A stretch of DNA of 64,000 bases, taken from sequence record LC680885.1. One strand, given 5' to 3'. The notes beneath the pieces are model-generated. The model had not been told where the DNA came from. It made no database searches and saw nothing but the letters and a program-made list of their open reading frames with translations. Numbering within the stretch: the first letter of the stretch is position 1; the number at the start of each line of letters is the position of its first letter. Shown piece after piece: positions 32,132-56,376 of the stretch. The DNA is from Staphylococcus phage S6. Both the position numbers and the translations under genes were made by a program.

Positions 32132-32139
32132 TAATTATT

Positions 32140-34817: not shown

Positions 34818-34832
34818 AAGGAGAAATTTTAA

Positions 34833-35534: not shown

Positions 35535-35550
35535 GGAAGTGTAAATGGAT

Positions 35551-36036: not shown

Positions 36037-36041
36037 GGAGA

Positions 36042-36227: not shown

Positions 36228-36228
36228 A

Positions 36229-36882: not shown

Positions 36883-36891
36883 AAATATGTA

Positions 36892-36917
36892 TTAAATATA
36901 TATTATAAAAATGAGAT
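36892..36917 (+). promoter_or_regulatory. Conserved promoter-like motif copy 5 ('ttaaatatatattataaaaatgagat') followed by hairpin 36913-36943
   Basis: Exact consensus. A 13-bp hairpin 'gagataatgaatt..aattcattatctc' overlaps its 3' end. Confidence 0.45.
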
Positions 36918-36975
36918 AATGAATTAATATAATTCATTATCTCTATATTAATTTAATTAGGAGAGTGAAAAAGAT

Positions 36976-37584: not shown

Positions 37585-37598
37585 AGGAGATAGATATA

Positions 37599-38219
37599 AT
37601 GGATGTAAATGAATATATAAATAATCATGATTTTTATAGAGTTGGGAATGACGGTCAAGTATTTGTATTTAATAAAGATATATCAAAAGATGAATTAAAT
37701 TCTAAAATATTTACTAAATTATTTTCATGCGAAAATATAGGAATTATACTGTCTGAATGTGGTCATTATATAATAGATGGAAATAATATATTCTTAAGAA
37801 ATAATGATAAAATATTATTAGTCGAAAATATGACTATTGATATAAGTTTATTTAAAGATGATCTAATTGAATTAAATTTTATATTAAATATTGAATCTGA
37901 TCTTTATTCAAAAATTGGTCCTTTTGAAAAAGATAATCATGATCCTTTTTATTATTATAATACTATTATTCAAATAGAAAATAAAGATAACTTTCAACAT
38001 GAATTAATTTCTCATATAACAAATCATTTTAATAAAATGAGTGATGTTGATTTAATGCTTTTAACTACTAAAAATGAAATTAGATTTAATAAAGATTATA
38101 GTATTAATAAAAAATGTATTGATTTTAAATGTAATTTTAATGAAATTTATAAAATATTTAATAAATTAGAAGATGAAAAAGAAATTAAGAAATATATAGT
38201 AAGAGAAAATTTTAAATAA
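37599..38219 (+). CDS. paralog-family protein (tail ..LEDEKEIKKYIVRENFK)
   Basis: 206 aa. AAGGAG RBS. Confidence 0.55.
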   Translation: MDVNEYINNHDFYRVGNDGQVFVFNKDISKDELNSKIFTKLFSCENIGIILSECGHYIIDGNNIFLRNNDKILLVENMTIDISLFKDDLIELNFILNIESDLYSKIGPFEKDNHDPFYYYNTIIQIENKDNFQHELISHITNHFNKMSDVDLMLLTTKNEIRFNKDYSINKKCIDFKCNFNEIYKIFNKLEDEKEIKKYIVRENFK

Positions 38220-38232
38220 GGATAGAATAAAT

Positions 38233-38796
38233 ATGAATTTAGATAATATTGTAATATTAAAAAAGAAAAATGATGGTAAATTTGACAATAACAAATTTAT
38301 AGAATTTAATCATAATAATATTAATAATGATGAAATATTAAGTCTTTCTTTAATTACTCTATATACGAGCGTGTATGCATTTTATATAAAAAGTGATGTA
38401 AAACCTGACAATTTTGTTAGTTATTTAGCTAATTTTTATTTAGAAATAGATGGGCATTTAAAAGGACCTTTAAATATAACACATGATGAAAATAATAGAA
38501 TACTTATAATTTATAAAGGAAGACTACCACAAGATATTTTTGAGATTAGAGAATTTAACGTAAATACTAAATTATATGCATACTTAATTAAAGGTGGTAA
38601 TTACAATACGGTAGAAGATGATCTAATCAAATCAATAATCAATGGTTCAGAGTATATAATAAATAATGAAAGAATTAAGCCAAAAATTATTATTAATGGA
38701 GCATATAAGGATATTACAAATGTATTAAATTATTTTGAAAAACTTACTGATGAAAAAGAAATTAAAAAATATCTAATTAAAAAAAATTTTAAGTAG
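38233..38796 (+). CDS. paralog-family protein (tail ..LTDEKEIKKYLIKKNFK)
   Basis: 187 aa. AAGGA RBS. Confidence 0.55.
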   Translation: MNLDNIVILKKKNDGKFDNNKFIEFNHNNINNDEILSLSLITLYTSVYAFYIKSDVKPDNFVSYLANFYLEIDGHLKGPLNITHDENNRILIIYKGRLPQDIFEIREFNVNTKLYAYLIKGGNYNTVEDDLIKSIINGSEYIINNERIKPKIIINGAYKDITNVLNYFEKLTDEKEIKKYLIKKNFK

Positions 38797-38813
38797 AATA
38801 AGGAGGATTAAAT

Positions 38814-39437
38814 TTGGATAAGTCATTATATGTATCGGATATATTCGATGAGAAAGTTATAGGAAGAAAGGATCTTAATAAAGATGAACTTTTTGATTTG
38901 TCATTTAATACAATTTTAAATAATTCTGCTGACACTAGATTTAATAAAGAAGGAATTAGGTTAATGTTATCATTTTCAAAAGGATTAATTTTAAAATTTG
39001 ATTATGCAGACAAATATTTTTATGTGAAAGATTTTATATTTTTAATAGAAAAAGTTGATGGTAACTATGAATTTAATTTTACATTAAGTATTCCAGAATT
39101 TGCAGACAGTGAAATTGAAATTGAATTAGGAATTTTTGAATCGGATAAAGGTCATAGAGAATTTTATTTTAATGATTTTTCTTATTATAAAGAAGGAAAA
39201 ACTTTATTAGAAAGAGCTAAAGAATATTTAATATACGATATTTTTAATAATTATGGTGTTATTTTTAGTATTTTTTCATTAAAAGACAAAAATAGAATTT
39301 TAACAGACGATAATTTTATCATAGATAATAATGATATAGATGAATTTTATAGTCTAAAAAATATAGATAACGTATTTAGAGAAGTAACAAACGAAAAAGA
39401 AATTAAAGAATACTTAGTTCAGAAAGGATTTAGATAA
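38814..39437 (+). CDS. paralog-family protein (tail ..VTNEKEIKEYLVQKGFR)
   Basis: 207 aa. TTG start after AAGGAGG. Its final codons (AAAGGA) serve as the RBS of the next gene. Confidence 0.5.
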   Translation: MDKSLYVSDIFDEKVIGRKDLNKDELFDLSFNTILNNSADTRFNKEGIRLMLSFSKGLILKFDYADKYFYVKDFIFLIEKVDGNYEFNFTLSIPEFADSEIEIELGIFESDKGHREFYFNDFSYYKEGKTLLERAKEYLIYDIFNNYGVIFSIFSLKDKNRILTDDNFIIDNNDIDEFYSLKNIDNVFREVTNEKEIKEYLVQKGFR

Positions 39438-39438
39438 A

Positions 39439-40050
39439 ATGAAAATAGACTTAGAATCTTATGAATACTATTACCATGATGAAGAAAAAATATTAGTTCC
39501 AGTATCATTAGATATGAAGAAAGAAAATGCAAATGAGTTAATGACGTTTGAATATTATAAGAAAGTTTTTAAAAGTTTTAATCATAATATATTTCATAAA
39601 AGAATTCATGATGATAATATACTATTTAGTACTCGATTAAATAAAGTGATTAACAAAAGTACTGGTATATCAATACCTACTTATGATTTATATATACATT
39701 TTGAAATAGATAACTCATTAAATATTATTTCCTTAGAATTAAGTTTTTCAATGGATACAAATCACTTTGATTTATTTAGAACATTCTATAAAGATAAAAT
39801 AGAAGTTATAAATTTTTCAAAGACAGATTTTTTAAAATATAATCAAAATGTAGATAATTTAGAAGATAAAATGGCATGTCTATTAGCTAAATTATTCTTT
39901 GATATGCACAATGATGAAAATGAAGATATTGAAATATATGTAGACAATTTTTACCATGAATCACTAGACATAGCTAAGCCATATAAATATTTTAGATTGA
40001 TGGGAGAAAAAGAAATAAAAAATCTAGCAACTAAAAAAACTTTTAAATAA
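39439..40050 (+). CDS. paralog-family protein (tail ..GEKEIKNLATKKTFK)
   Basis: 203 aa. ATG lies 10 nt after the AAAGGA formed by the K-G codons of the upstream gene. Confidence 0.55.
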   Translation: MKIDLESYEYYYHDEEKILVPVSLDMKKENANELMTFEYYKKVFKSFNHNIFHKRIHDDNILFSTRLNKVINKSTGISIPTYDLYIHFEIDNSLNIISLELSFSMDTNHFDLFRTFYKDKIEVINFSKTDFLKYNQNVDNLEDKMACLLAKLFFDMHNDENEDIEIYVDNFYHESLDIAKPYKYFRLMGEKEIKNLATKKTFK

Positions 40051-40107
40051 TTTAATTAACTTTCTTTTATATTAATAAATACAATGAAAGAGAGTTGAAT
40101 ATAATAA

Positions 40108-40887
40108 ATGTCTGAAACTAATGAAATTGATTTAATATCACAAATCAATGATATGATGGATGAATATAAGATGTTAGTAAAATTTAAAGATAAAATGGAA
40201 AATAAAGAAATTCAATTAGAAAATCGTATACAGGATTTAACTAAGAATTTGAAATATCCTAAACATACATTCGTATCTAATATGGAAGCTAACATTATTA
40301 GTGTAGAAAAAGAAATTAAAGACACTATTATGCAAATGAAAAATGTTAAAAAAGATATTATTGACTTAACTATGAAAGCTCAGAAAATGGCTGAAGATGA
40401 TGAATCTGAAGATAATTATAAAACTCTTGCTAAAAATGTACTTAATGAGCTTAATAATATGTCTAATAAAGATATTTTAAACAGTATGATGGAACCTGAA
40501 GAAGTAAATGATGAAGATACTGATTTTAGTGAAGAATTAGATGCAAAATTGTCACAATTAGATGAAGAAGAGAAATCTATTAATAAAGAAGTAGATCAAA
40601 AAGAAGAATTGAGTCAAGAAATTAATGAACTAGATCAACAAGATTTATCTTCTATATTAAAAGTCTATAAAGGTACATTACAATTCTTTGTTGTAGGAGA
40701 TTCTCCTGAAGAATATGAATTAGTAGTTGCTGATATGGATATGAATATTATTGAAGAAGATGAAATGGAAGATGAATACCCAGAATTATTTACTATGACT
40801 AGAGATCTTATCTTTGAAGATGTTGAAGGTAATGATGAAATAGTTAAAGATGAATTTGGAAATATTTATCAAAAAGCAGAATTTTAA
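40108..40887 (+). CDS. highly acidic coiled-coil protein
   Basis: 259 aa. Runs such as 'EEDEMEDEYPELF', 'DEDTDFSEELD'. GAGAG RBS. Confidence 0.55.
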   Translation: MSETNEIDLISQINDMMDEYKMLVKFKDKMENKEIQLENRIQDLTKNLKYPKHTFVSNMEANIISVEKEIKDTIMQMKNVKKDIIDLTMKAQKMAEDDESEDNYKTLAKNVLNELNNMSNKDILNSMMEPEEVNDEDTDFSEELDAKLSQLDEEEKSINKEVDQKEELSQEINELDQQDLSSILKVYKGTLQFFVVGDSPEEYELVVADMDMNIIEEDEMEDEYPELFTMTRDLIFEDVEGNDEIVKDEFGNIYQKAEF

Positions 40888-40895
40888 ATTATTTT

Positions 40896-40929
40896 ACCCC
40901 ATAATATATTAATACAATATATTATGGGT
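40896..40929 (+). terminator. Hairpin terminator ('accccataatatat..atatattatgggt')
   Basis: Near-perfect 14-bp stem followed by an AT-rich T tract. Confidence 0.5.
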
Positions 40930-40956
40930 ATTTATTATATATGAAGGCTATGTGTT

Positions 40957-41322
40957 ATGGGATTTGAGTTAACGATATATGGAATAAATAAAAGTAAGCA
41001 AAGAGATTTACAATGGTATATTAATCATCATAGATATACTAAAGAGAAGAATCATTTATTTGAATTGGAATTATATAAACCACATGAACTTTTTGATGTA
41101 TTAAAATATAAAGTAATTAATTATAAAAATGAAGATGGTTTTGATATTCAAGTAATAGATGAAAATACTTTAAAAGAGTTAATGGAAAATGAATTAAGAG
41201 AAAATAATTTTGAATATGGCTTAACTCAATATTATGAACTTATGACTGAAATATCCAGAAATAAATATTTTATAAATAATGATAAATTTGATTTTTACCT
41301 AATTTTAGATACATCATTTTAA
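40957..41322 (+). CDS. hypothetical protein
   Basis: 121 aa. Confidence 0.45.
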   Translation: MGFELTIYGINKSKQRDLQWYINHHRYTKEKNHLFELELYKPHELFDVLKYKVINYKNEDGFDIQVIDENTLKELMENELRENNFEYGLTQYYELMTEISRNKYFINNDKFDFYLILDTSF

Positions 41323-41343
41323 TAATAGGAGAGTGAAATAGAT

Positions 41344-41469
41344 ATGTTAAAAAGATTATACAATTTATTAACTAAGAAAAAATTTGAAAGAAGATTATAC
41401 GACTTTAGATTTAATTATCAAGATCATGAACATTTAAATCAAGTTCATAGAGATTCAAATAATATTTAA
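41344..41469 (+). CDS. small ORF (41 aa) not in the supplied track
   Basis: ATG at 41344 with AGGAGAGTG 8 nt upstream. Encodes 'MLKRLYNLLTKKKFERRLYDFRFNYQDHEHLNQVHRDSNNI'. Verified in-frame stop at 41467-41469. Confidence 0.4.
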   Translation: MLKRLYNLLTKKKFERRLYDFRFNYQDHEHLNQVHRDSNNI

Positions 41470-41488
41470 TATGAAAGGATGATTATTA

Positions 41489-41890
41489 ATGCTATCAGAA
41501 TACAGATTAAATTCAAGTAAAGAAGACATTAAACAGCTATTAAGAGATTATGGTTTTAAAAAAGATTCTTATACTAAAGCTTTATTATATAGAAAACGTG
41601 TAACTGACCCAAATGATATTTTATTTATAGTGGCCGAAGTAGTTATTGAAACTAATTCAGATCTAGTTAAATTAAATTACTATGATAGTAAACATAATAG
41701 ATTTAATCCTTCTAATGAATCACCAGAAGTTCAAAAAGGTTTAAGTATATTAGAAGATATGAAAGAAAAAGAATTATTAATTGAACCAGAGTTAACTCAA
41801 AATGAAGAAGAAAAAGAAGTTCTTGATAGACTTAAAGAACAACGTGAAGAAATGGAAAATGGTCAAGTATCACCCAATTCTGAAAATTAG
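41489..41890 (+). CDS. hypothetical protein
   Basis: 133 aa. AAAGGATG RBS. Confidence 0.5.
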   Translation: MLSEYRLNSSKEDIKQLLRDYGFKKDSYTKALLYRKRVTDPNDILFIVAEVVIETNSDLVKLNYYDSKHNRFNPSNESPEVQKGLSILEDMKEKELLIEPELTQNEEEKEVLDRLKEQREEMENGQVSPNSEN

Positions 41891-41891
41891 A

Positions 41892-41917
41892 ATAAATATA
41901 TATTATAAAAATGTTAT
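41892..41917 (+). promoter_or_regulatory. Conserved promoter-like motif copy 6 ('ataaatatatattataaaaatgttat') + hairpin 'tcccaatacta..tagtattggga'
   Basis: Begins 2 nt after the stop of the 41489 gene. Hairpin at about 41917-41945. AAAGGAG RBS of the 41971 gene follows. Confidence 0.45.
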
Positions 41918-41970
41918 CCCAATACTATTAAATTAGTATTGGGATTATTATAATAAAAGGAGTTAAGTAA

Positions 41971-42747
41971 ATGGAGAAAATTAAAAAATACTACATTAGT
42001 AAATCGAAAGATGAATTTATGGAATTAACTTTCAATGAAAATGAAACACTCTATTTTGACTTTAAGTGGAAAGTTTTAAGTGAGCTATTCACTACAATGC
42101 AAATAAATTATAATAAGAGATTTCTTATATCTCATGAAGAACATGATGACAATGGTTTAGTTGGTCTTAGAATAAATTTCAATGCTTTTCCCACAGTTAA
42201 ATACAAATATAAGGGTAAGAAAAATAAAATGGAACTTCTTATATACGCTATAATACGCTTTAGTCTAAATGAAGAAGACGATAATTATATTAAGTTTAAA
42301 GCTGTTCCTTTATATAATAATAGTGAAATAGGGAAAAGATTATTTAGTAAAAGATCTGGTATATTTGATGATAATGGTGAACTAAATTTACCGCATGACT
42401 TTAATGAAGAAGTTATGATTCGTTTTTTAAAATATTTTAAAAGTCATATACAAAAAGGTAAAAGACCTTTAGAACTCAAGGATGATTTACACAAGATGTT
42501 TACTACTACAAATAAATTAATTTTTGAATTACTAGATCAGATACAAGATCATTCAGATATTGAATTTCTTATTGCACCCGATTGGGATTTTAGTGGTAAA
42601 GAAATGGAAAAAGAAAAAGGTTTTAGTTTTGAAAAAGAATATGATAAGTATATCAGTTTAAATGATTTCGATGTTGATGCATATTTTAGAGAAATAACTG
42701 ATGAGAAAGAGATTAAAAAATTTAAAGTTAAGAAAGGATTTTCCTAA
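41971..42747 (+). CDS. paralog-family protein (tail ..EITDEKEIKKFKVKKGFS)
   Basis: 258 aa. Also has the internal 'QIQDHSDIEFLIAPDW' block shared with the 44346 member ('QIRDHFDIEFFVSDG'). Confidence 0.6.
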   Translation: MEKIKKYYISKSKDEFMELTFNENETLYFDFKWKVLSELFTTMQINYNKRFLISHEEHDDNGLVGLRINFNAFPTVKYKYKGKKNKMELLIYAIIRFSLNEEDDNYIKFKAVPLYNNSEIGKRLFSKRSGIFDDNGELNLPHDFNEEVMIRFLKYFKSHIQKGKRPLELKDDLHKMFTTTNKLIFELLDQIQDHSDIEFLIAPDWDFSGKEMEKEKGFSFEKEYDKYISLNDFDVDAYFREITDEKEIKKFKVKKGFS

Positions 42748-42748
42748 T

Positions 42749-43567
42749 ATGAAAAATAATACAAAATATTTTATAGATAAAAAAAGAGATGAATTAATTG
42801 AAATTGATAAAGAATATCTTAATCGATATGAGTATATTGCACACGTATTAACTGTCATTGATATGAATAAGCTTTTATATATTGAAGATCATGCTAGATC
42901 CTTTATAAATGGTATTAATATTGAAGAAAATGATGTGGGAAATGGATTGACTTTTAATAATATAGAAATTCATAATAATATCCATTTCAAAAATATAAAT
43001 AGTAAAAATAATGCGTATAAAAATTTTAATACCGATTTTTATATAAACTTCTTTATTGATAGAATGGATAAAGTTAAAACTCAGAATTTTAAGTTAAAAT
43101 TTAATTTTTATAATTCAATATATAAAGAATATTTTAATAAAATTACCAATAATTTATTAAATGAAGATAATTTAGTCAATGAAGGAGTAAATAAAGAAAT
43201 AAGATCTCTTATGAATTTTGAATTATTTAAAAAAGAGTTATATAATACTAAATACAATAATAGTGAATATTTAAATCTTTTTGAAAATTCATCATATATG
43301 AAGGACAATGTTATTGGATTTATAAATAAATTTGAAGGATTATTTTCTAGTGTAATATACCAAAATAACCTTAGTGTATTAATGACTCTTTATGAAATAA
43401 AATACATGTATGAAGATGACATAGATTTTTATATTAATTTTTATAATGAAAATTATGGTTTAGTTAATATATTAGAATTAATCGAAAGTGATGAAAATGA
43501 TTTATTTAAAGAAATTAAAACAGAAAAAGAAATGAAAGCGTTTAAAGTTAGAAAAGGATTCAAATAA
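42749..43567 (+). CDS. paralog-family protein (tail ..EIKTEKEMKAFKVRKGFK)
   Basis: ATG at 42749 lies 2 nt after the upstream stop. The RBS AAAGGA is formed by the K-G-F codons of the upstream gene (track start 42701 is an internal overlap). Confidence 0.55.
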   Translation: MKNNTKYFIDKKRDELIEIDKEYLNRYEYIAHVLTVIDMNKLLYIEDHARSFINGINIEENDVGNGLTFNNIEIHNNIHFKNINSKNNAYKNFNTDFYINFFIDRMDKVKTQNFKLKFNFYNSIYKEYFNKITNNLLNEDNLVNEGVNKEIRSLMNFELFKKELYNTKYNNSEYLNLFENSSYMKDNVIGFINKFEGLFSSVIYQNNLSVLMTLYEIKYMYEDDIDFYINFYNENYGLVNILELIESDENDLFKEIKTEKEMKAFKVRKGFK

Positions 43568-43588
43568 TATAAAGAAAGGATTTTTGTA

Positions 43589-44329
43589 ATGGAATATAAT
43601 AATTACTATAGATATAAATTAGATGGAAAAATACTTCACTTTGATATGGATAGAACTGATTTACGTAGAGATAAATTGGCTGAAATATTTACTAAAGTTA
43701 AGATGGAATATATTTATAAAGATAAAAAAATGATTAAAAAAGCAAGAAACTTTATTTACCGATCTAATCTTTCTTTAGAGTATTCTCATTTTAAAGATAA
43801 AGTATTTGTAATCAAACAAATTTCTAAAATGCTAAGTAAAAACAATGTAAGGGATTTATTAATTTACGATACGGATCTTAGTTTAGAATTTAATTCTATT
43901 TTAGACGGTGGTATATTTAAAAAAGATTTTCCAGAAGGATCCTTTTATGAAAAAATAGAAAGTAATATGAATAGAAAATATTTAATTTTAAGTGATAATA
44001 TAAGACACACTAGTGAAAGTTTTGTTGATTTATATGATAAAGATTATATTTTAAATTTTGAAGAAGTAGAATTGCTAGTCAAAGAATTTAATAAAACTCT
44101 TTTAAATTATCTTATGGATTTAATGAGTTATGGAAATCTAGAATTAAAAGTTAGAAAATCGGAGTTAGCATATTTTATGACAGGAATATATACAAAAATG
44201 GAAGAAAACGAAGATAAGTTATTCCCTATATTTGATTATAAATTTTTACTTAATGAATCTGGATTATTTGAAGAGATTACAGATGAGAAAGTTATTAAAG
44301 AATATTTAGTGAAAAATAATTTTAAATAA
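43589..44329 (+). CDS. paralog-family protein (tail ..EEITDEKVIKEYLVKNNFK)
   Basis: 246 aa. Last ~80 nt are nearly identical at DNA level to the ends of the next two genes. Confidence 0.6.
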   Translation: MEYNNYYRYKLDGKILHFDMDRTDLRRDKLAEIFTKVKMEYIYKDKKMIKKARNFIYRSNLSLEYSHFKDKVFVIKQISKMLSKNNVRDLLIYDTDLSLEFNSILDGGIFKKDFPEGSFYEKIESNMNRKYLILSDNIRHTSESFVDLYDKDYILNFEEVELLVKEFNKTLLNYLMDLMSYGNLELKVRKSELAYFMTGIYTKMEENEDKLFPIFDYKFLLNESGLFEEITDEKVIKEYLVKNNFK

Positions 44330-44345
44330 AAAGGAGATCAATGTA

Positions 44346-45128
44346 ATGAGTATAAATAAAAGTCATAAAAAATATTTTTTGAGTAAAATGACAGATGATT
44401 TATTTGAAGTTACTAACTTATACAGATATAATATAAATGAAGATTATTTATATCTACCTCAATTACTTTCTAATTTACAAGTAAAAAGTAATGAAGAAAT
44501 AAATATACTTTCTGAAGAGATTGTTGGTAAAGATGATAATGGAGAGAATTTATGGTCAGGAACTATATCAGCTGGATATATTTTTCCAGTTATCAAATAT
44601 AATGTTAATAATAAAAAGACAACGAATATACTTATTATTGATTTTGATATTATTTTCAACGAATCAATAGAAAATGAAAACTATTTAAAAGTTAGAATTG
44701 AAAATCCATACTCTTCAGGTATAAATTCAATAATTTTTAATAGCGTTATTGGCAATATATTAGATGAATCCAATTCTTTAAAAGTACCTTTTAGATTTCA
44801 TATAAATAGCATGGAAGATTTAATATCAGATTTTAATAATGGTACAGAAAATGATTTTAGAAATAATAAAGATTTATACCAAATATTAGTTGAAGTAAAT
44901 AGTTCTATATTGGAAATTTTATCACAAATTAGAGATCATTTTGATATAGAATTCTTTGTATCAGATGGTTGTTTCTCGCACATACCAGAGAATGATAAAA
45001 GAGATAATGATGATATAGATGATAAATACTATAATTTATTTGACGAGTATAAAATGTCTGGAGTATTTGAAGAGATTACAGATGAAAAGATTATTAAAAA
45101 ATATTTAGTGAAAAATAATTTTAAATAA
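44346..45128 (+). CDS. paralog-family protein (tail ..EEITDEKIIKKYLVKNNFK)
   Basis: 260 aa. N-terminal 'KKYFLSKMTDDLFEV' is shared with the 45144 gene ('KKYFLCKINDELFEV'). Confidence 0.6.
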   Translation: MSINKSHKKYFLSKMTDDLFEVTNLYRYNINEDYLYLPQLLSNLQVKSNEEINILSEEIVGKDDNGENLWSGTISAGYIFPVIKYNVNNKKTTNILIIDFDIIFNESIENENYLKVRIENPYSSGINSIIFNSVIGNILDESNSLKVPFRFHINSMEDLISDFNNGTENDFRNNKDLYQILVEVNSSILEILSQIRDHFDIEFFVSDGCFSHIPENDKRDNDDIDDKYYNLFDEYKMSGVFEEITDEKIIKKYLVKNNFK

Positions 45129-45143
45129 AAGGAGATTAATATA

Positions 45144-45941
45144 ATGGGTGTAATTAAAAGTAATAAAAAATACTTCCTATGTAAAATAAATGATGAATTA
45201 TTTGAAGTTGATAAGAACAATAGAGATTCATTTTTATATGACTATTTACCTTTAATAATAGCTGAAAAAATAATTAATTCAACTGAAAAAGATTCATATG
45301 AAACTAGTGCATTGGATGTTTATTATAAAAAAGAAGATAACATAATTGAAGGGAATTTAAAATTTTTAGCAAGATGTTTACTTCCCGTCCTGTATAATTT
45401 CAATAATAAAAATTCATTTAAAACAGTTATGACTATCGCAGATTTTAAATTTAAAAGAGATGCTAATAAATCTACTTTTAGTATAGATAAAAATAGTGTT
45501 AATGATAAAATACTATTTCAAATGAGACCTTTAGGAAATGAAATTGATGATATTTTATTTAATAGTATTATAAGTGACCTTTTAAATGAAAATGACGAAA
45601 TAGAAATGAAACAAATGTTATTAATTGGTAATTTTGAAAAATTGTTAAGTGAAATTGATAATCAAAATATAAAACATCATGATGATTTTAAAATTTTAAT
45701 CAAAGATATATTCAATATTTATCTTAATTTATTAAACTCATTAAGTCATCATTTTAATATTGAATTTTTCTTTTCTGAATCTTCTTTTCTAGACATGTTA
45801 AATATTTATGATTATGATATTATTAATAATAAAGATAGTTATAAAATAAATATTTTTGAAGATGATTTAGATGGAATATTTGAAGAGATTACAGATGAAA
45901 AATTTGTTAGAGAATATTTAGTGAAAAATAATTTCAAATAA
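45144..45941 (+). CDS. paralog-family protein (tail ..EEITDEKFVREYLVKNNFK)
   Basis: 265 aa. AAGGAG RBS. Confidence 0.6.
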   Translation: MGVIKSNKKYFLCKINDELFEVDKNNRDSFLYDYLPLIIAEKIINSTEKDSYETSALDVYYKKEDNIIEGNLKFLARCLLPVLYNFNNKNSFKTVMTIADFKFKRDANKSTFSIDKNSVNDKILFQMRPLGNEIDDILFNSIISDLLNENDEIEMKQMLLIGNFEKLLSEIDNQNIKHHDDFKILIKDIFNIYLNLLNSLSHHFNIEFFFSESSFLDMLNIYDYDIINNKDSYKINIFEDDLDGIFEEITDEKFVREYLVKNNFK

Positions 45942-45997: not shown

Positions 45998-48733
45998 ATG
46001 AAGATTAAAAGATTAAAGTTAAAGAATTTTATCGGTATTTATGCTGGTATGGGATTAAAAGAAGTTGAAATTGATTTTAGTAAAAGTAAAAATAATATGA
46101 TTATGCTTCTTGGAGATAACGCTTCAGGTAAGACGACAGTTATGTCTAATCTTAATCCATATAGAGAAACTAATGATCAACGTAAAACTATAGTATTAGA
46201 AGATGAAAAAGGTATAAAAGAGATTGATTATATTAAGGGTAATGATGTTTATGAAATTAAACATCATTATGGTAAAAACAGTTCTCAAAATAAATCATTC
46301 ATTAAGAAAAATGGTGAAGAACTTAATGAAAATGGTGGTATTAAATTATTCAATGAAATAGTAGATAAAGAATTAGGTGTATCTAAAGAATACTTTACTG
46401 TAGGTCGTTTAGGCGATAACGTATCAAACTTCATTGACTATACTACAGGTGATCGTAAATCATATATCAATAAATTTGTACCTAATATTGATAGATACTT
46501 AGAAGCTTATAAAGTAGCTAATGAGAAATTAAAAATTATTACTAAAGATTTAAAATCACTTAGATTTGATTTAGACAAATATAAAGAATTTGATGAAATC
46601 AAAAAAGAAAAAGAGAATTTAGAAACTTTAATTGATCAATTACAAAATGAACTTGATGAAGCTAATAAAGATAAAACAACTCATGAAACTAAAATGAATT
46701 CTATCATGGAAGATAAGTACAAAGAGATTCATCCAACTGAATATAAAAATCAATTAATTAATGAAATTAATGAACTTAATCAAGAATTAGAAAAAGAAAG
46801 AAAGTTAAAAGAAGATAATGAGAATTTAAATAAATATACTATTGAATCCGCTAATGAGAAAAAAGATAAAATAGATACTATATTAAATAATACTAATAAT
46901 GAGTTGACTTCTGTTGAAAAAGATAAAGAGAATAATCAAGATAAATTAGATGATTTAATCAGTAGAAAATCTAAAATAGAATCTCGTATGAATGCTATCA
47001 AATTTAATGAAGATTATGATGCTTCTGATGAAATTGATTCAATTCTTGAAGGATATAAAGAAGATTTAGAAGGTATTAAAGATGATGTAGATATTTCTAG
47101 AGGGTCTTTTGTAAGTGAATTCGGTTTACAAATTAAAGATAATATTAAAGAGGATTCATTAAGATTATATGTAAATGATTTAATTTCTAAGGTAGATAAT
47201 TTTAAAGAATTTATTAATGATAATGAATTTAAATATGGTTCTATTCGTGGAGATTTTGAAAGTGAAATTAAAGATAATAATGAAAAAATTTCTATGAACC
47301 AGAATGAATTTAATGAAATTAATACTAAGCTTAATCAAATTAAAGGCAAATCAGACTTATTAAAAATATTAGATCAAAAAGATCATGATCACTATAATGA
47401 ATGTGTATTTGTTCCTTTAGTAGCTGACTTTAAAGACAATGAATTTGATTCAATCTCTGAATTAGAAAATAAAGGTAATCAACTTTATAAAGATAATCAA
47501 GAATTAGAAAAAGATAATAAATTATTATCTAATCATATTGACTTATTACGTAAATTTAATGACATACTTACTAGTAGAAATAGTTTAATTGAATATATTG
47601 GTTTTGAAATGATTGATATTGATAGTATTGAAGAAATATTTACAAATGGTAATACATTCTCTAGTGAACTAAATAGACTTAATTCATTAATTGAAAAGAC
47701 AAATGAAATTCGTACTAATGAAACTAATAGAGATAAATTGACTATTGAATTAGAGAGAAAAGAAAATGCTCTTAAAGAAGATTATTCTAATAAGAAAATA
47801 TTAGATCAATATAAAGAAGATAAAGAAGATTTAGTTAAACAAATTGAAGAAATTAAAAATAAAAATAATGAAATTTCTGAGAATCTTAATTATCTTAATG
47901 GTCGTAAAGAAAAAGCAATTACTAACTTAAATATTATTAATGAATTTATTAATCTAACAGAGAGATCTGAAGAAATTAAATTAAAAATGAAAGATAAAAA
48001 TGATATAGTTGATGACATTGATAAGGATCTTTCAAAATTAAGTAATTTATATGAACTTAATCAAAAAGCAGACAATAAAATTCAATCTATTAAAGATAAT
48101 TTAACTATGAAGAAAAATGATTTAGAATCTACTAAAGAAAAATACTTTGCAGTTAATTCTATTATTACTAAGATTGATGAAATTGAATCAGTGTTATGGA
48201 AATATAATATGGTGGTAGATTCATTAAATCCTAAGAAAGACTCTATACCATTAATATTCATTACTAATTATCTTAAAGATATTGCAGTAAGTACTAATGA
48301 ATTACTTTCAGTTGCTTATAATAATTCATTTAAAATTGACTTTGACTTAACAGATAAAGATTTCTTTATTAATGTGTATAAAGGTAATGGAACTGAGCTG
48401 AAAGATATTAAAGAAGCTTCTCAAGGAGAAACAGCTTTAACTAATATTAGTTTATCTTTATCATTATTAAACAAAGTATCTCAAGATTATAATATTCTAT
48501 ATTTAGATGAAATGGATTCAACGTTAGATTCTAATAATAGAAGAAGATTTGTTGATGTAATTGATAGACAAATTGAATTAATGGGTCTAGAGCAAGTATT
48601 CTTAATTAGTCATAATGATGAATTCTATAGTGCTAATATTGACTTAATTTTACTTAAAGGATATGAAAGTAAAATTGATATTAATAATGAAGAAATGATG
48701 CAAGGTAAAAATGTATTATTTAAAGTAAACTAA
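45998..48733 (+). CDS. Rad50/SbcC-like recombination/repair ATPase (T4 gp46-like)
   Basis: N-terminal Walker A 'LLGDNASGKTTVMSNL'. Long coiled-coil. C-terminal signature 'ASQGETAL', Walker B 'ILYLDEMDS', H-loop 'FLISHNDEF'. Confidence 0.75.
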   Translation: MKIKRLKLKNFIGIYAGMGLKEVEIDFSKSKNNMIMLLGDNASGKTTVMSNLNPYRETNDQRKTIVLEDEKGIKEIDYIKGNDVYEIKHHYGKNSSQNKSFIKKNGEELNENGGIKLFNEIVDKELGVSKEYFTVGRLGDNVSNFIDYTTGDRKSYINKFVPNIDRYLEAYKVANEKLKIITKDLKSLRFDLDKYKEFDEIKKEKENLETLIDQLQNELDEANKDKTTHETKMNSIMEDKYKEIHPTEYKNQLINEINELNQELEKERKLKEDNENLNKYTIESANEKKDKIDTILNNTNNELTSVEKDKENNQDKLDDLISRKSKIESRMNAIKFNEDYDASDEIDSILEGYKEDLEGIKDDVDISRGSFVSEFGLQIKDNIKEDSLRLYVNDLISKVDNFKEFINDNEFKYGSIRGDFESEIKDNNEKISMNQNEFNEINTKLNQIKGKSDLLKILDQKDHDHYNECVFVPLVADFKDNEFDSISELENKGNQLYKDNQELEKDNKLLSNHIDLLRKFNDILTSRNSLIEYIGFEMIDIDSIEEIFTNGNTFSSELNRLNSLIEKTNEIRTNETNRDKLTIELERKENALKEDYSNKKILDQYKEDKEDLVKQIEEIKNKNNEISENLNYLNGRKEKAITNLNIINEFINLTERSEEIKLKMKDKNDIVDDIDKDLSKLSNLYELNQKADNKIQSIKDNLTMKKNDLESTKEKYFAVNSIITKIDEIESVLWKYNMVVDSLNPKKDSIPLIFITNYLKDIAVSTNELLSVAYNNSFKIDFDLTDKDFFINVYKGNGTELKDIKEASQGETALTNISLSLSLLNKVSQDYNILYLDEMDSTLDSNNRRRFVDVIDRQIELMGLEQVFLISHNDEFYSANIDLILLKGYESKIDINNEEMMQGKNVLFKVN

Positions 48734-49349: not shown

Positions 49350-51071
49350 ATGGGTAGATTTATTAAATCAACATATTTAAATAAAAAAGAGACACATTCA
49401 GGAAAAGAAAAAGTAGTAATGGTAGTTAAAGAAGAAGACGGTAATAAAAAACATATGGAAATAACTGATCCAATGATGCATTATTATGTAACTAAAGATG
49501 AACATTGGTTACCACCTAATAAAATTGTAGGTTCTATTGAAAAAGATAAAGTAAGAACTGTTACTTGTAAGCATAAAGATATTATCAAATCAGTAGTTAA
49601 AGAAGCTGGTAATGCTCAAGATAAAGCAGAATATGATAGAATTATGAAATCAGGTAATTGGCAAGAATATAGAAAATTAAAAGATTTTCATTTATTAAAT
49701 AATGCTCATGGATCTGATATTAATATAGAAGATTATAATATTAATGAGTATATTAAAAAGAATTTAGATAGTAAAGTCGGTATAGATATATGTCTATTCG
49801 ATATTGAGGTTGATGGTTCTCAAGTAACAGGCTTCCCAGATCCTGAAAAGGCTGAAGCAGAGATAAATATTATAACTGTAGTGGATTGGAGTAAGAAAAA
49901 AGTATTAACATTCGCTCTTAAATATGACACTGATACTTATAGAGAAACTATGGAAGATCAGGATAAGTTAATTAAAGACTTAAATGAAATCTATAATAAT
50001 GAAAATAGTGAAATTGGTAAAGATTTAGGTTTAGAATTTGAAATATATGAATTAGATACAGAAATGCAAGTAATTAAATCTTTCTTATACTATATTAATG
50101 AAATTAGTAAACCTGATATATGTACAGCATGGAATCTAGATTATGACTTCCCTGCAATATTTGAACGTATTAGAGCTAATGGAGAAGATCCTGCAGATTA
50201 TTTCTGTTCTAAAGAATTTGAAGATAAGAAAGCATATTATAAATTAGATAAAAACGCTACAGATATGGCTAATAGATCTTCTACATTTGAGACTAATTCT
50301 TATACTAACTGGATTGACCAATTAGCTTTATATGCAAATATTAATAAACCTAATGGTGCTTTGGAATCAGTTAAGTTAAATGATATTGGAGAAAAAGAAG
50401 CGAGAGTTACTAAAGATGTTTATGAAGGTTCTATTTCTGATTTACATTTTAGAGATTATTACACATTTATACTTTATAATATTAAAGATACTGTATTAGC
50501 TGCATTAATTGAACATAACACTAATATGTTTGATTTATTATTCTCTATTGTAGATATGACTAGAACAAGACCTAGTAAAGCACTTAAGAAAACTATTTGT
50601 TTAAGAAATCGTAGTTCAGTATTCTTTGAAAATCAAGGATACGTATTAAGTAATAACCACTCAAAATTATTATCAGATCCGAATGCAGATAAAATTCGTG
50701 GTGGATTTGTAGCAGATATGATGTTAATTGAACGTAATGGTGATACATTAGTTAAAGGTAGAGATATTAGATCTAATAGATTATTTAGTAATGTTTGTGA
50801 CTTTGACTTGAGTGCTCTATATCCATCTATTATTAGAGCATATAATATAACACCTGAAGGACATGTGGGTAAAATGAATATTCTTGATAAAGATAGAATA
50901 ACAGTGCCTAAGTATGAGGAAGATAAAGATAACTATGATTTTAATACTGAATTCGTAAGTAAGTTTAACAGTCAAGATAGTGTTGCTTTTGCTCAAGAAT
51001 TTCATGGTTTACCTCCTCTTATTAAAGCATCTGATGACATTATTAAAGAATTAGAGGAGGAAATTGGTTAA
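49350..51071 (+). CDS. Family B DNA polymerase, N-terminal half (3'-5' exonuclease domain + palm motif A) encoded as a separate gene
   Basis: Exo I 'ICLFDIEVDG'. Exo II 'AWNLDYDFPAIF'. Exo III 'YTFILYNIKDTV'. Motif A 'DFDLSALYPSII'. The ORF ends about 75 aa after motif A, and no motif B or C follows it. The next ORF starts at an overlapping ATGA. Confidence 0.75.
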   Translation: MGRFIKSTYLNKKETHSGKEKVVMVVKEEDGNKKHMEITDPMMHYYVTKDEHWLPPNKIVGSIEKDKVRTVTCKHKDIIKSVVKEAGNAQDKAEYDRIMKSGNWQEYRKLKDFHLLNNAHGSDINIEDYNINEYIKKNLDSKVGIDICLFDIEVDGSQVTGFPDPEKAEAEINIITVVDWSKKKVLTFALKYDTDTYRETMEDQDKLIKDLNEIYNNENSEIGKDLGLEFEIYELDTEMQVIKSFLYYINEISKPDICTAWNLDYDFPAIFERIRANGEDPADYFCSKEFEDKKAYYKLDKNATDMANRSSTFETNSYTNWIDQLALYANINKPNGALESVKLNDIGEKEARVTKDVYEGSISDLHFRDYYTFILYNIKDTVLAALIEHNTNMFDLLFSIVDMTRTRPSKALKKTICLRNRSSVFFENQGYVLSNNHSKLLSDPNADKIRGGFVADMMLIERNGDTLVKGRDIRSNRLFSNVCDFDLSALYPSIIRAYNITPEGHVGKMNILDKDRITVPKYEEDKDNYDFNTEFVSKFNSQDSVAFAQEFHGLPPLIKASDDIIKELEEEIG

Positions 51072-51853: not shown

Positions 51854-51917
51854 TGTGAAAAAATACTTATAAATTAAGAGAAAATTCTAAAAAGTATTGA
51901 AAAGGAGTGTTTTGAAT

Positions 51918-54362
51918 TTGGCTGATGAGAATAAAACTCAGAGAAGTATAAATAATCTCAACAGAGATATGGTCAGAGGATTAGGCGATGAAGAAAATCC
52001 TAAGAACTTATCTGACAATATAAATGATTTTGATGATAGGCTAAAAAAGATAAGACGTAAAAGTAATCATGGTAATAGTAATGGTGATATTCTATCTTTA
52101 GCATCTAAAGTAAACGGTAAAAGTAGAAATGTTAGAAAATCTAATACCGGTGATGATAAAAAAGATTTCATTAAAGATTTTATAGAAGAGAATATTGAAA
52201 ATCAAGATTTTTCATCTGAAATTGCTAGGGTGTCTAGATACGATGACTATAGAATTATAGATAAATTTATACCTGAAATATCAACAAGTATTGATGTATT
52301 CGCTACTTCTATTATTGCACCTGACGATACTTCTAAATTATCATTGATGTATCGTTATGGTGATACAAATAATAAAGATGAATCAGAAAATAAAGAAGTT
52401 TTAAATGAATTAGATAGAATTGTAAAGAAATACAATTTGGATAATTTAACATATACTTCTATCCGTGAAGGTTTATTATTAGGAGACGTATTCTATATCA
52501 TTAAAGATACTAAATCTGATTTTGAAGAAATACTTAATGAGAATGATGATGTATTAGGAAGAGAAACAAGAGAAGAACAAAAAGTGATTAATGAATCATT
52601 TATAGATCAGAATCTTAAAGAATCTGATTTAGATATTGTCATTAATGAATTTAATAATCAATTTGAAAAACCTATCAAAGATGAAGAGCAGTTAAATGAA
52701 CAAAGAGCTAATTTTAAAAATGAGATACTAAAGAGTATTAATGAAAATGTATCTTTCTTTGAAAATTCTTCTGAATTACTATCTGATATAGGTAAATACA
52801 AAGGTTCTAATGATTTACAAGCATTTTTAAATAAAGCAGATGACAAAAATAAATCTAGTAAATTAAAATCTGGTTCTGTATATTTCAGATCTGTTGAACC
52901 TGAAGATATGATTAAATTAGAAATTGATGGTATGTGTATTGGTTATCTTTATATTGAACCTGATTCTGGAACTGATTTAAGAGGTGGAGCTAATCCTCTA
53001 TTATCTGCTATGAATAATTTAATGGGAGACGGTTATCAGAAGCAAGGTCAAACAGGATCATTCTCAGGTGGTATGGGAGTTACTAACTTAGATCCTGTTA
53101 CTGGTAATGTTGCAGGAAATAATATGTCTAGTAATTCCAAAAATCCTAATTCAGGAATGAATGCTACATCTGGATCATATTATGAAAATGGAAATACTGT
53201 TATGGCGTATCAAGGTTTAGTTGATGTTATAGTTAAAGGTATATCTCAAAAAATCAATATGGACTTCATTAATAAAAATGATTCATTTAAAGATATCATA
53301 TATAGATTAATACGTAAGAATTATATTATTGAAAATGGTATTAAAATGACTTTCTTAGAAGCTGATGAAGTATTTCATCACAAATTAGACAGTCAAAAAA
53401 CTTATGGAGTTTCTAAACTTAATAAATCATTATTCTTTGCTAAATTATATTTAAGTACATTAATAACTACAATGATGGTTAAATTAAATCAATCAAGAGA
53501 TAGACGTGTATTTAGAGTTAATGCAGGTTTAGATGATGATTATGAGGGAACTGTAGAAGAAATAATTCGTAATGTAAGACAAAATGAAATGTCTACAGGT
53601 TTATTTGGTGATGGAACTTCAGTTCAAACATTGTTCAATCAAGTAGGTAACTTAGAAAACATGTACATTCCTCAAAATAAAGAAGGTACTTCACCTTTAG
53701 AAATAGATACAATTTCTGGTATCCAAGTTGATATTAATGATGAATTCTTAGAATGGCTTAAGAAATCAGTTATATCAGGTACAGGAGTTCCTTTAAACTA
53801 TATTGATGCTGAAACTGAAACTGATTATGCACGTTCATTATCAATGCAGAATAATAACTTTGTAAGACGTGTAGTTAACTATCAAAAATCTTTCGGGGAA
53901 TTCTATACTGAAGTTTTAAGAAAGCTTTACTATCTAGAAAATGTAAATAGCAAAGATAAAAAGTATAATGAAGAACTAAATAATAGACTACAAGAAATTG
54001 AAGCTTACTTCCCAGCACCTGTATTCTTAAACTTAGGAAACCTTAATGAAGAAGTTGGAGCTGTTACACAAATGATAGACTTCTTAGTTCCTTTATACAC
54101 TTCAGAAGCTACTGGTGACGAAGAAGAAGATGATAATGAAAAATTAAAACGTCTATTCCGTAAAGAATTAGTTCAACAAGAATTCATGTCTAATTTAGAT
54201 TATGATAGATACGAAGACATTATTAACAATATTAAAGATGAAATAAATAAAGATAAAAAGAAAAATGACATGGTAAATAGCAATAATGCTGATGAAGACG
54301 ATTTATCTTCTTCAGATGATTCTGAAAATAATTCAGACGATAATTTTGAGGATGATTTCTAA
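51918..54362 (+). CDS. hypothetical large protein with acidic C-terminal tail
   Basis: ORF to 54362. TTG at 51918 with AAAGGAG 10 nt upstream (track start 51897 is a GTG inside the RBS). Gly/Asn-rich insert 'GGMGVTNLDPVTGNVAGNNMSSNSKNPNSGMN'. C-terminus 'DEDDLSSSDDSENNSDDNFEDDF'. Confidence 0.5.
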   Translation: MADENKTQRSINNLNRDMVRGLGDEENPKNLSDNINDFDDRLKKIRRKSNHGNSNGDILSLASKVNGKSRNVRKSNTGDDKKDFIKDFIEENIENQDFSSEIARVSRYDDYRIIDKFIPEISTSIDVFATSIIAPDDTSKLSLMYRYGDTNNKDESENKEVLNELDRIVKKYNLDNLTYTSIREGLLLGDVFYIIKDTKSDFEEILNENDDVLGRETREEQKVINESFIDQNLKESDLDIVINEFNNQFEKPIKDEEQLNEQRANFKNEILKSINENVSFFENSSELLSDIGKYKGSNDLQAFLNKADDKNKSSKLKSGSVYFRSVEPEDMIKLEIDGMCIGYLYIEPDSGTDLRGGANPLLSAMNNLMGDGYQKQGQTGSFSGGMGVTNLDPVTGNVAGNNMSSNSKNPNSGMNATSGSYYENGNTVMAYQGLVDVIVKGISQKINMDFINKNDSFKDIIYRLIRKNYIIENGIKMTFLEADEVFHHKLDSQKTYGVSKLNKSLFFAKLYLSTLITTMMVKLNQSRDRRVFRVNAGLDDDYEGTVEEIIRNVRQNEMSTGLFGDGTSVQTLFNQVGNLENMYIPQNKEGTSPLEIDTISGIQVDINDEFLEWLKKSVISGTGVPLNYIDAETETDYARSLSMQNNNFVRRVVNYQKSFGEFYTEVLRKLYYLENVNSKDKKYNEELNNRLQEIEAYFPAPVFLNLGNLNEEVGAVTQMIDFLVPLYTSEATGDEEEDDNEKLKRLFRKELVQQEFMSNLDYDRYEDIINNIKDEINKDKKKNDMVNSNNADEDDLSSSDDSENNSDDNFEDDF

Positions 54363-54370
54363 TATTAACA

Positions 54371-54406
54371 TTTGAATAACGGATTAAATACAATTCGTTA
54401 TTCAAA
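54371..54406 (+). terminator. Hairpin terminator ('tttgaataacg..cgttattcaaa')
   Basis: 11-bp stem, 14-nt loop. Its 3' arm overlaps promoter-motif copy 7. Confidence 0.55.
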
Positions 54407-54426
54407 TTTATATTATATAAGTGTAG
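54402..54426 (+). promoter_or_regulatory. Conserved promoter-like motif copy 7 ('tcaaatttatattatataagtgtag')
   Basis: Variant of the consensus. Lies 37 nt upstream of the 54463 start. Confidence 0.4.
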
Positions 54427-54462
54427 TACATAATATTTATTTATAAGGAGAATGAATTAGAT

Positions 54463-56376
54463 ATGACAAATGAAGAAATTGTTTTAGATTTAAAATTAGG
54501 TAAGTATAATGATTATTTACACTCAGATAATTATTTTGAAATTTTAGAAGATTTAAAGAAAGATATTATTAGTAATCCTCAAAAAAGAATGGAAGACTAT
54601 TTTGAAGACAATATATCTAAAAGTAATTATTTCACTTTATTAGTATTAGGTAAACCTTTTAGAGATATGAATAAAGAGTTTACGGAAGAATACTTAGTTA
54701 ATCCAACTGATATTGAAGATTATTATGATTATTTTGACAAAGTTGTTGTTAATTTTATTCATGAAGGACATGATCCAATAAAAGTTAGTCAATCTATTGC
54801 ATTTATTATTGATGAATTAACTATATTTTCAAATGAATATATTTTACCTTTAGATGGACCATCTATTTCATTATACGATATTATGAGATTGGCTAATGAA
54901 GATAAAGAAGTAGAAAAATTAATTAACTTTGATAAAGAAGATATTGACCCTAGCTTAAACTATCAGCAAATTATCAATGAAGTTCAAAAACCTAATATGC
55001 ATAAATTAATTGATCGTATTAAATCTGATAAAGAAAATGATTATAAAACTTTCTTACATTCAGGAACAGGTATTAATAAGATACAATTGAATGAGGTTTT
55101 AAGTTTCGTAGGATACAAACCAGATATTCGTGGCGATGTTGTAACTGATATTATTGATACCTCATTCATGCGTGGTTTAAAAGATACAACACAATTTGCT
55201 ATTGATGCAGAATCTTCATTAAACGCATTAATGAACTCTAAGAATAAAGTACGTGAATCAGGATACTTAAACCGTAAAATTACTTTATTAACTTCAGATT
55301 TAAAATTATCAGAAAATGAAGATTGTGAAAGTAAACATTTTGTTTACGTTAATATGAATAGTCAAGATAAATTAGATAGATTTAATGATAGATTCTATTA
55401 TGATGATACAGATCAAGAATTAAAATTAATTAATTCTAAAGAAGATAGTCATTTAATAGGACAGATTGTTCCATTACGTTCTCCTATTACATGTGCTGAA
55501 TCTAAAGGAAAAATATGTCAAACTTGTTATGGTAAACGTTTATATAACATTAATAGAAACTTATCTGTAGGTATATTAGCTACTTTAAGATTAACAGAAC
55601 CTATGACTCAAAAATTACTATCAACAAAACACTTACAAGCTGTACAGTTATCTGAATTCTCTTGGCCAGATATCTTTAAAGAACACTTTGAATTCTCTGG
55701 AGACAATATTGTTCCACGTAATGAAAAGACTAAGGTTATTATTGATGAAATGGTTATTAATGAAGATTATGAATATGGAAGATATAAAGCTAACAGTTTT
55801 AAATTTAAAGTAGGTACTAAAACTCATACTGTTAAATCACCTGTAACTCTTAAAATACCAGATCAAAATATTGAAACTATGGATAAGTTTTACGATGAAG
55901 ATGAAAATGCATTTATATTCAGTATGAAAGACTTAAAAGAGAATTTCTTATTCAATATTAAAATTAAAAATGAAGGTGTTGCTGACCCACTTCTTAAAAT
56001 ACGTTCTATATTAGAAAGTACTAAATACATTAGAAATGATTATGAAGAAAATAACTATCAAGCAATGTTCAATGATGTAACAGATTTATTACTTAAATCA
56101 GGTACAGACGTTATGAGTGTTCATTTAGAGACTATTATTAGAAACATGGTATTCTTAAATGAAGATTATAAAGAAAGAACTAAATATAGAGATCCTGAAT
56201 TTGAACCTGATATTGAATTGAAAAATGTAGGTAGTGCTATTTTAAGTTCACCTTCACCAGTTCAATCATTAATCTTTGAAAAGATTAAAGCTCAGTTAAG
56301 CACTGATGAAACTAATAACTTCTTCAGTAAAGATGGGGATTCAATGTTCGATCCGTTATTTGATTTTGATATTTAA
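54463..56376 (+). CDS. Multisubunit RNA polymerase beta-prime-like subunit, C-terminal fragment (bridge helix + trigger-loop region)
   Basis: 'NKVRESGYLNRKITLLTSDL' aligns to the bridge helix 'TANSGYLTRRLVDVAQD'. 'RSPITCAESKGKICQTCYGKRL...VGILATLRLTEPMTQKLLSTKH' aligns to region G '[21 protein letters not shown]...[22 protein letters not shown]'. AAGGAGAATG RBS. Confidence 0.7.
   Translation: MTNEEIVLDLKLGKYNDYLHSDNYFEILEDLKKDIISNPQKRMEDYFEDNISKSNYFTLLVLGKPFRDMNKEFTEEYLVNPTDIEDYYDYFDKVVVNFIHEGHDPIKVSQSIAFIIDELTIFSNEYILPLDGPSISLYDIMRLANEDKEVEKLINFDKEDIDPSLNYQQIINEVQKPNMHKLIDRIKSDKENDYKTFLHSGTGINKIQLNEVLSFVGYKPDIRGDVVTDIIDTSFMRGLKDTTQFAIDAESSLNALMNSKNKVRESGYLNRKITLLTSDLKLSENEDCESKHFVYVNMNSQDKLDRFNDRFYYDDTDQELKLINSKEDSHLIGQIVPLRSPITCAESKGKICQTCYGKRLYNINRNLSVGILATLRLTEPMTQKLLSTKHLQAVQLSEFSWPDIFKEHFEFSGDNIVPRNEKTKVIIDEMVINEDYEYGRYKANSFKFKVGTKTHTVKSPVTLKIPDQNIETMDKFYDEDENAFIFSMKDLKENFLFNIKIKNEGVADPLLKIRSILESTKYIRNDYEENNYQAMFNDVTDLLLKSGTDVMSVHLETIIRNMVFLNEDYKERTKYRDPEFEPDIELKNVGSAILSSPSPVQSLIFEKIKAQLSTDETNNFFSKDGDSMFDPLFDFDI

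Follow-up and report, generated by a model that had tools for sequence, protein, structure and literature searches.

An ordinary gene for a probable non-virion RNA polymerase β′ C-terminal subunit in Staphylococcus phage S6, and its separation from the virion-type β′ N-terminal fragment upstream

In Bacillus phage AR9, gp154 co-purifies with gp270, gp105, gp089 and gp226, which together form a five-subunit enzyme (PMC5449584), the non-virion RNA polymerase (nvRNAP). The AR9 record annotates g154 as 'non-virion RNAP subunit; beta-prime subunit, C-terminus', and gp154 is chain D of PDB entries 7S00, 7S01, 7UM0 and 7UM1. The subunits of the virion RNA polymerase (vRNAP) of AR9, gp078, gp125, gp145, gp189 and gp264, are all products of late genes, and early promoters are found at the nvRNAP genes (PMC5312081). 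In phiKZ, gp74 (PDB 7OGP chain D) is an nvRNAP subunit as well. Here we describe an open reading frame (ORF) of 637 amino acids (aa) that starts at position 54463 of a 64,000-nucleotide (nt) stretch of Staphylococcus phage S6 (LC680885.1); this whole stretch is referred to as the window. A sequence-only reading of the window had interpreted the ORF as the C-terminal part of a split RNA polymerase (RNAP) β′ subunit and had paired it with an N-terminal fragment 21 kb away. That interpretation is partly supported; the gene is already known and ordinary.

The 637-aa ORF is considered, with a probability of about 95 %, to be the ortholog of AR9 gp154, phiKZ gp74, MarsHill gp141 and UFVDC4_00049, that is, the C-terminal β′ subunit (β′-C) of an nvRNAP with its N-fragment partner encoded elsewhere. 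This assignment follows from reciprocal matches with gp154, from the gapless alignment of the insertion domain in the trigger loop (TLID) and from the presence of gp154 in the purified AR9 nvRNAP. The best match among solved structures is gp154 (7S00 chain D, E 1.2e-81, query 45-632 against chain 60-630), and the next is phiKZ gp74 (E 1.8e-16, query 198-395 against 199-393). In a tblastn search of AR9 the ORF matched g154 alone at E ≤ 1e-5. The reverse search with gp154 against the window returned the 637-aa ORF alone (7e-85). Global alignment of the two proteins (637 versus 631 aa, 32.5% identity) is collinear from residue 1 to the end. The S6 and AR9 genes share the N-terminal boundary, the bridge helix, a zinc site of four cysteines, a trigger loop carrying the TLID, an early-promoter motif upstream and an SF2 helicase gene downstream. 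The gene order nvRNAP β′-C, small ORFs, SF2 helicase is common to the window and AR9 g154-g156. They differ in host genus, here Staphylococcus, and in strongly diverged sequence in the TLID (27% identity) and in residues 101-199 (21%). With phiKZ gp74 the protein shares the register of the split and the core motifs, but similarity is detectable over the core from bridge helix to trigger loop alone, and the termini and the insertion are unrelated in sequence.

That the 637-aa ORF is a genuine β′ C-terminal fragment with bridge helix, zinc site and trigger loop was confirmed. The frame is uninterrupted and begins with ATG. Profile searches, in which an unrelated family might have appeared, placed it in the β′ family: Pfam RNA_pol_Rpb1_5 reached 38.3 bits over aa 245-564 (E 1.3e-9), the gathering cut-off being 28.5, and phrog_3015, 'RNA polymerase beta subunit', gave E 6.8e-68. 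Identity to cellular β′ is low, 24% over 217 aa. Residues 200-391 match Escherichia coli β′ 728-937 in BLASTP (E 3e-12), far above chance, and the peptides quoted in the sequence-only reading as collinear with the bridge helix and with region G and the trigger loop are both present. Downstream of the bridge-helix core (Table 1), RSPITCAESKGKICQTCYGKRL (aa 339-360) and GILATLRLTEPMTQKLLSTKH lie opposite E. coli β′ 883-936, which comprises region G and the N-terminal arm of the trigger loop; LTEPMTQKLLSTKH lies opposite the E. coli trigger-loop N-arm. The trigger-loop His is kept, with H390 opposite E. coli H936. The four zinc-site cysteines are the sole Cys residues of the protein and are aligned with E. 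coli cysteines that we take to be the second zinc site of β′. The TLID of AR9 gp154 spans residues 400-508 and has a fold unseen elsewhere in the PDB (Fraser et al., PMC9209446). The segment following it in the 637-aa protein, GVADPLLKIRSILEST, probably represents the C-terminal arm of the trigger loop, judging from its position and its alignment to AR9 gp154, with an unscored resemblance to E. coli GGLPRVADLFEAR in addition.

The gene is conserved among Staphylococcus jumbo phages, with protein identities of 81-99.7%. The window (GC content 19-36%) is ~96% identical to phages vB_SauM-UFV_DC4 (DC4) and PALS_2. Positions 44000-64000 match DC4 with 96.5% identity at 98% coverage, and also match the Staphylococcus jumbo phages PALS_2, Madawaska and MarsHill. 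DC4 (UFVDC4_00049, 99.7% protein identity), MarsHill (gp141, 98.1%), Madawaska (98.1%) and PALS_2 (97.8%) carry essentially the same gene with the same flanking genes and show point differences only; in MarsHill the sequence 5' of the ortholog is identical to that of the window. Identity to the orthologs of SA1, Machias, PB50 and AH12 is 81-86%, to that of Listeria phage LPJP1 36%, and to those of Bacillus phages AR9 and PBS1 ~32.5%. The public names of the ortholog disagree: the GenBank record of DC4 has 'hypothetical protein', PALS_2 has 'delta subunit', and MarsHill has 'non-viral RNA polymerase beta-prime'.

The sequence-only reading had placed the split of β′ between the catalytic site (DFDGD) and the bridge helix, and this was borne out. 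It had furthermore equated the position with three known splits, and these fared differently. Judged from the alignments, the split is the common jumbo-phage site, since the N-termini of the 637-aa ORF, AR9 gp154 and phiKZ gp74 are in register (residue 198 opposite gp74 199) and both N-fragment paralogs end 51-53 residues past the catalytic aspartates. The 503-aa N-fragment of the window ends 51 aa after DFDGD. The equation with the phiKZ-type split thus stands. In archaea the bridge helix stays with the N-terminal A' polypeptide when A' and A'' are split. In S6 it sits on the C-terminal fragment (aa 265-279), so the A'/A'' equation does not hold. A review agrees, describing the jumbo-phage split as different from that of archaea and coincident with that between cyanobacterial rpoC1 and rpoC2 (PMC7598289). 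The rpoC1/rpoC2 equation probably holds for the region and not for the exact residue. As between cyanobacterial β′ and gamma, the phage split lies in the inter-domain region that separates the catalytic double-psi β-barrel from the bridge helix. In local alignments, however, the end of the window N-fragment lies opposite residue ~521 of the 624-aa cyanobacterial gamma, and residue 155 of the 637-aa protein opposite residue 86 of the rpoC2 product. By these offsets the phage split is probably located ~70-100 residues nearer the catalytic site (upstream) than the rpoC1/rpoC2 split. The phage system also differs from the cyanobacterial one in that its two genes are not adjacent and in that it has no alpha or omega subunit.

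A β′ N-terminal fragment is indeed encoded upstream of the 637-aa ORF, at a distance of 20.7 kb. This 503-aa ORF is a real β′ N-fragment, as it matches phrog_2986 (2.6e-110), carries DFDGD at aa 448-452 and scores 26.5 bits with Pfam Rpb1_2, narrowly above the cut-off of 25.3. Its orthology points to the other enzyme. In the tblastn search of AR9 it matched g145, annotated 'virion RNAP subunit; beta-prime, N-terminus', with 44.4% identity (E ~1e-100), and exon 1 of AR9 gp145 matched it with 44% identity (4.6e-107). The MarsHill ortholog, gp113, carries the annotation 'viral RNA polymerase beta-prime subunit'. By contrast, AR9 gp270, which is the non-virion β′ N-terminal subunit (β′-N), matched the 503-aa ORF through its PDB chain at just 1e-11, over aa 33-245. 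When the AR9 gp270 sequence, rebuilt by hand from its two exons, was searched against the window, one significant match was obtained, to the same 503-aa ORF, with the 27% identity (E 5e-14 to 8e-14) of a paralog. No gp270 ortholog was found within the 64-kb window by this search. Since the 503-aa ORF is orthologous to gp145 and its match to gp270 is that of a paralog, it is assigned by sequence relationship to the paralogous vRNAP, and is not the partner of the 637-aa ORF.

The gp270 orthologs of the nearest relatives (36-37% identity, ~1e-59) are located at loci other than that of β′-C (Table 1), at a distance of 125-135 kb in genomes of ~265 kb. The true partner is therefore expected to be encoded outside the window. 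Genes for gp105-, gp089- and gp226-like partners are likewise present in close relatives and lie outside the window. No further RNAP subunits were found among 20 other ORFs of the window with PHROGs, nor in the MarsHill annotation of the homologous region. The genes said to lie between the two fragments, a paralog array, the N-terminal half of a DNA polymerase (exonuclease half, 49350..51071) and Rad50 (SbcC/Rad50-like, 45998..48733), were all found there, together with a portal gene (51897..54362) that had not been mentioned. In AR9 the virion β′-N gene is located 4.6 kb from g154 on the opposite strand, whereas both genes are on the same strand here; compared to AR9, the two β′ genes have been driven apart by an insertion that comprises the paralog families, the SbcC gene, the exonuclease half of the polymerase and the portal gene. 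The spacing of the virion β′-N gene from the non-virion genes varies widely among phages. In LPJP1 the virion and non-virion β′-N genes are ~1.3 kb apart (149392-150900 and 152178-153482). The 503-aa gene has no intron here, as in DC4, PALS_2 and SA1; the MarsHill virion β′-N gene is annotated as joined from three pieces with a homing-endonuclease ORF within, and AR9 g145 also consists of three pieces.

Upstream of the 637-aa ORF there is a putative early promoter of the AR9 type. The early-promoter consensus of AR9 is AAATATATATTAT-(6N)-G+1 (PMC5312081). A motif one mismatch away from it overlaps the tail of the hairpin that ends the portal gene and would place the start of transcription at G54423, 40 nt ahead of the start codon; the AR9 record annotates an 'early promoter' 55 nt before g154. 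At ≤1 mismatch the consensus occurs at nine window sites against 0.93 expected, a number reached in 0/100 shuffles, and all nine lie directly upstream of ORFs in the correct orientation. They are located at 12403..12422 on the minus strand and, on the plus strand, at 18537, 24310, 33811, 34236, 36894, 41894, 54404 and 60825; the 20-mer of 12403(-) recurs unchanged at 18537(+), and that of 36894 recurs at 41894. The consensus is informative only at ≤1 mismatch. At ≤2 mismatches the 20-nt consensus is not enriched in the window (15 versus 14.7), and in DNA as AT-rich as this the 8-mer TATATTAT by itself shows no enrichment either (40 sites versus 35.4 expected). MarsHill, SA1 and Machias have the core TATATTAT without change 5' of their orthologs, and Listeria phage LPJP1 and Bacillus phage BpSp have it there too. 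Matches of the sigma-70 type around the gene are at chance level (23 versus 24.3), and no promoter for the host RNAP is therefore claimed.

A terminator scan returned the portal-gene hairpin as its one site, against 0.4 expected. This hairpin is kept in MarsHill, SA1 and Machias, with a compensatory change of C-G to T-A in the stem of the latter two, and the Machias record annotates a terminator at the equivalent place. MarsHill likewise annotates a ribosome-binding site at the place equivalent to the Shine-Dalgarno sequence read here. No early-promoter motif at ≤1 mismatch precedes the virion β′-N gene at 32222, and the AR9 late-promoter motif AACA-(6N)-T[A/G] has no clean match upstream of it. 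A hairpin GCCATGTTAAG...CTTAACATGGC followed by a T-run is found at 32139..32170, between the ORF 31382..32131 and this gene.

By analogy with AR9 and phiKZ, the following role can be proposed. After infection the gene at 54463 would be transcribed early, as in AR9, by the vRNAP injected with the DNA; this is suggested by the conserved AR9-type early-promoter motif upstream. To the active-centre cleft the 637-aa protein would contribute its bridge helix, zinc site and TLID-bearing trigger loop as well as the parts of the clamp and jaw for downstream DNA. It would assemble with four phage polypeptides, a gp270-like β′-N, the N- and C-terminal β subunits (β-N and β-C) and a gp226-like promoter-specificity subunit. 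The resulting enzyme, lacking alpha and omega, may then transcribe late genes. Nothing found contradicts the assignment, but several points limit this picture. What is said of assembly, of the time of expression and of the protein's absence from virions is carried over from AR9 and phiKZ. In the virion proteome of DC4 only one RNAP subunit (UFVDC4_00067) was reported, which neither confirms nor excludes packaging of other subunits (DC4 paper). The residue equivalent to Arg933 of the E. coli trigger loop is replaced by Ser; AR9 gp154, which is catalytically active, has the same Ser. The promoter copy carries a mismatch (A to T, position 5), and in AR9 one mismatch at another position abolished the activity of a predicted early promoter (PMC5312081). 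The A-to-T variant is conserved in MarsHill and SA1 and is present in a second copy in the window at 33811.

The pairing made in the sequence-only reading, in which the 637-aa ORF and the 503-aa fragment are two halves of one split β′ in the same enzyme, is very unlikely. The two are on the same strand 20.7 kb apart and would jointly span the whole of β′, with one ending shortly after DFDGD and the other starting before the bridge helix. Orthology, however, divides them between two paralogous enzymes, gp145 being virion and gp154 non-virion. A separate gp270-like non-virion β′-N is encoded elsewhere in every close relative, and the purified AR9 nvRNAP holds gp270 and gp154, not gp145 (PMC5449584). 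The promoters argue in the same direction, since in AR9 the vRNAP genes are late and the nvRNAP genes early, and here the early motif at ≤1 mismatch precedes the 637-aa gene and not the 503-aa one. A hybrid is conceivable because both paralog sets have exactly the same β′ split site: the non-virion β′-C, presumably made early, could also join the virion-type β′-N 21 kb upstream, yielding an enzyme with its own promoter or timing properties, but we regard this as an outside chance of even lower probability.

Extremely improbable is the view that the 637-aa ORF is itself a middle or C-terminal β′ piece of the vRNAP and thereby the true partner of the 503-aa fragment. The vRNAPs of such phages do have β′ pieces with bridge helix and trigger loop (Korn et al.), and the gene adjoins the portal gene. 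The full-length match to g154 as the best and sole AR9 hit at E ≤ 1e-5, the retention of a TLID specific to the AR9 nvRNAP subunit, the phiKZ nvRNAP subunit gp74 as the best phiKZ structure match and an early-promoter motif atypical for vRNAP genes all speak for the nvRNAP instead. It is also next to impossible that the ORF represents the remnant of a polymerase gene that has decayed or lost its function. The low identity to cellular β′ and the replaced Arg933 equivalent would fit such a remnant, but the frame is intact at full length and conserved across the Staphylococcus jumbo phages at the identities given above; the bridge helix is kept, as are the His of the trigger loop and all four cysteines of the zinc site; promoter motif, ribosome-binding site and terminator are conserved; and activity is known for the AR9 ortholog, which carries the same substitutions. 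The assignment of the 637-aa protein as nvRNAP β′-C is thus retained.

Table 1 Features of the β′-C locus of phage S6, the virion-type β′ N-fragment gene of the window, and the gp270 orthologs of three relatives (in coordinates of their own genomes)
Feature	Location	Strand	Basis or remark
Gene, predicted nvRNAP β′ C-terminal subunit	54463..56376	+	637 aa, ATG start; profile and ortholog matches
Bridge-helix core ESGYLNRKITLLTSD	aa 265-279, 55255..55299	+	opposite E. coli β′ 791-805 NSGYLTRRLVDVAQD and AR9 gp154 NSGYLTRKISMLLMD
Zinc-site cysteines C288, C344, C352, C355	55324..55527	+	opposite E. coli C814, C888, C895, C898
Region G and trigger-loop N-terminal arm GILATLRLTEPMTQKLLSTKH	aa 370-390, 55570..55632	+	opposite E. 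coli 916-936
TLID	aa 396-507, 55648..55983	+	gapless alignment to AR9 gp154 400-513, 26.8% identity
Probable trigger-loop C-terminal arm GVADPLLKIRSILEST	aa 505-520, 55975..56022	+	position after TLID, alignment to AR9 gp154
Intrinsic-terminator-like hairpin ending the portal gene	54370..54407	+	16 pairs, then T-rich tail; at the beginning of the 100-nt gap between portal gene and β′-C gene
AR9-type early (virion-RNAP) promoter motif AAATTTATATTAT-ATAAGT-G (AAATTTATATTAT-N6-G)	54404..54423	+	overlaps hairpin tail
Shine-Dalgarno AGGAG	54446..54450	+	12 nt before the ATG, read from sequence
vRNAP β′ N-terminal subunit by orthology, not the partner	32222..33733	+	503 aa; ortholog of AR9 gp145 and MarsHill gp113
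gp270 ortholog, DC4	178934-180157		UFVDC4_00179, 436 aa, adjoins non-virion β-N gene (UFVDC4_00178); β′-C start 42399
gp270 ortholog, PALS_2	82177-83400		β′-C start 211500
gp270 ortholog, MarsHill	1739-2962		β′-C start 133637

Other features of the window are the following. The region 34335..45941 holds a run of ORFs of 160-290 aa with several paralog groups (all-against-all BLASTP, E ≤ 1e-4). Among these are a family of seven members, with ORFs at 37599, 38233, 38814, 41971, 43589, 44346 and 45144, and the pairs 34335/35545 and 36976/39439; one more pair, 26995/27698, is located outside the array. Pairwise identities between the paralogs range from 25% to 82%, and all are annotated as hypothetical in MarsHill. 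The family-B DNA polymerase is likewise split, into two genes 18.6 kb apart: a catalytic half (28818..30752; Pfam divDNApol, 4.9e-53) and an exonuclease or N-terminal half (49350..51071; phrog_3011, 3.6e-63). The catalytic half is a single uninterrupted ORF here versus two joined exons in the MarsHill annotation. Next to an AAA-type ATPase gene (18618..20168; phrog_1297, 8.8e-42), on its downstream side, is an ORF (20233..22170) whose product ends in a VWA-like DUF2201 domain; the ATPase ortholog UFVDC4_00011 was reported in virions and called a transcription factor (DC4 paper). Both GC skew and AT skew reverse their sign at about 12 kb (~12400). At the same place the structural genes on the minus strand, among them that for the tape measure (4627..10605, 1992 aa), give way to genes on the plus strand, and the intergenic region between the divergent genes bears the minus-strand early-promoter motif.

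The gene, its family, its structure (via AR9 gp154) and its role have already been described, and the 637-aa gene itself therefore adds no new biology. The value of the analysis is in the correction. Jumbo phages of the phiKZ/AR9 type have two paralogous sets of split β and β′ genes, scattered over the genome, and for this reason two fragments of one window that seem to complement each other should not be taken for partners on that ground. Before such fragments are paired, their orthology to the biochemically defined subunits of AR9 and phiKZ should be checked first.

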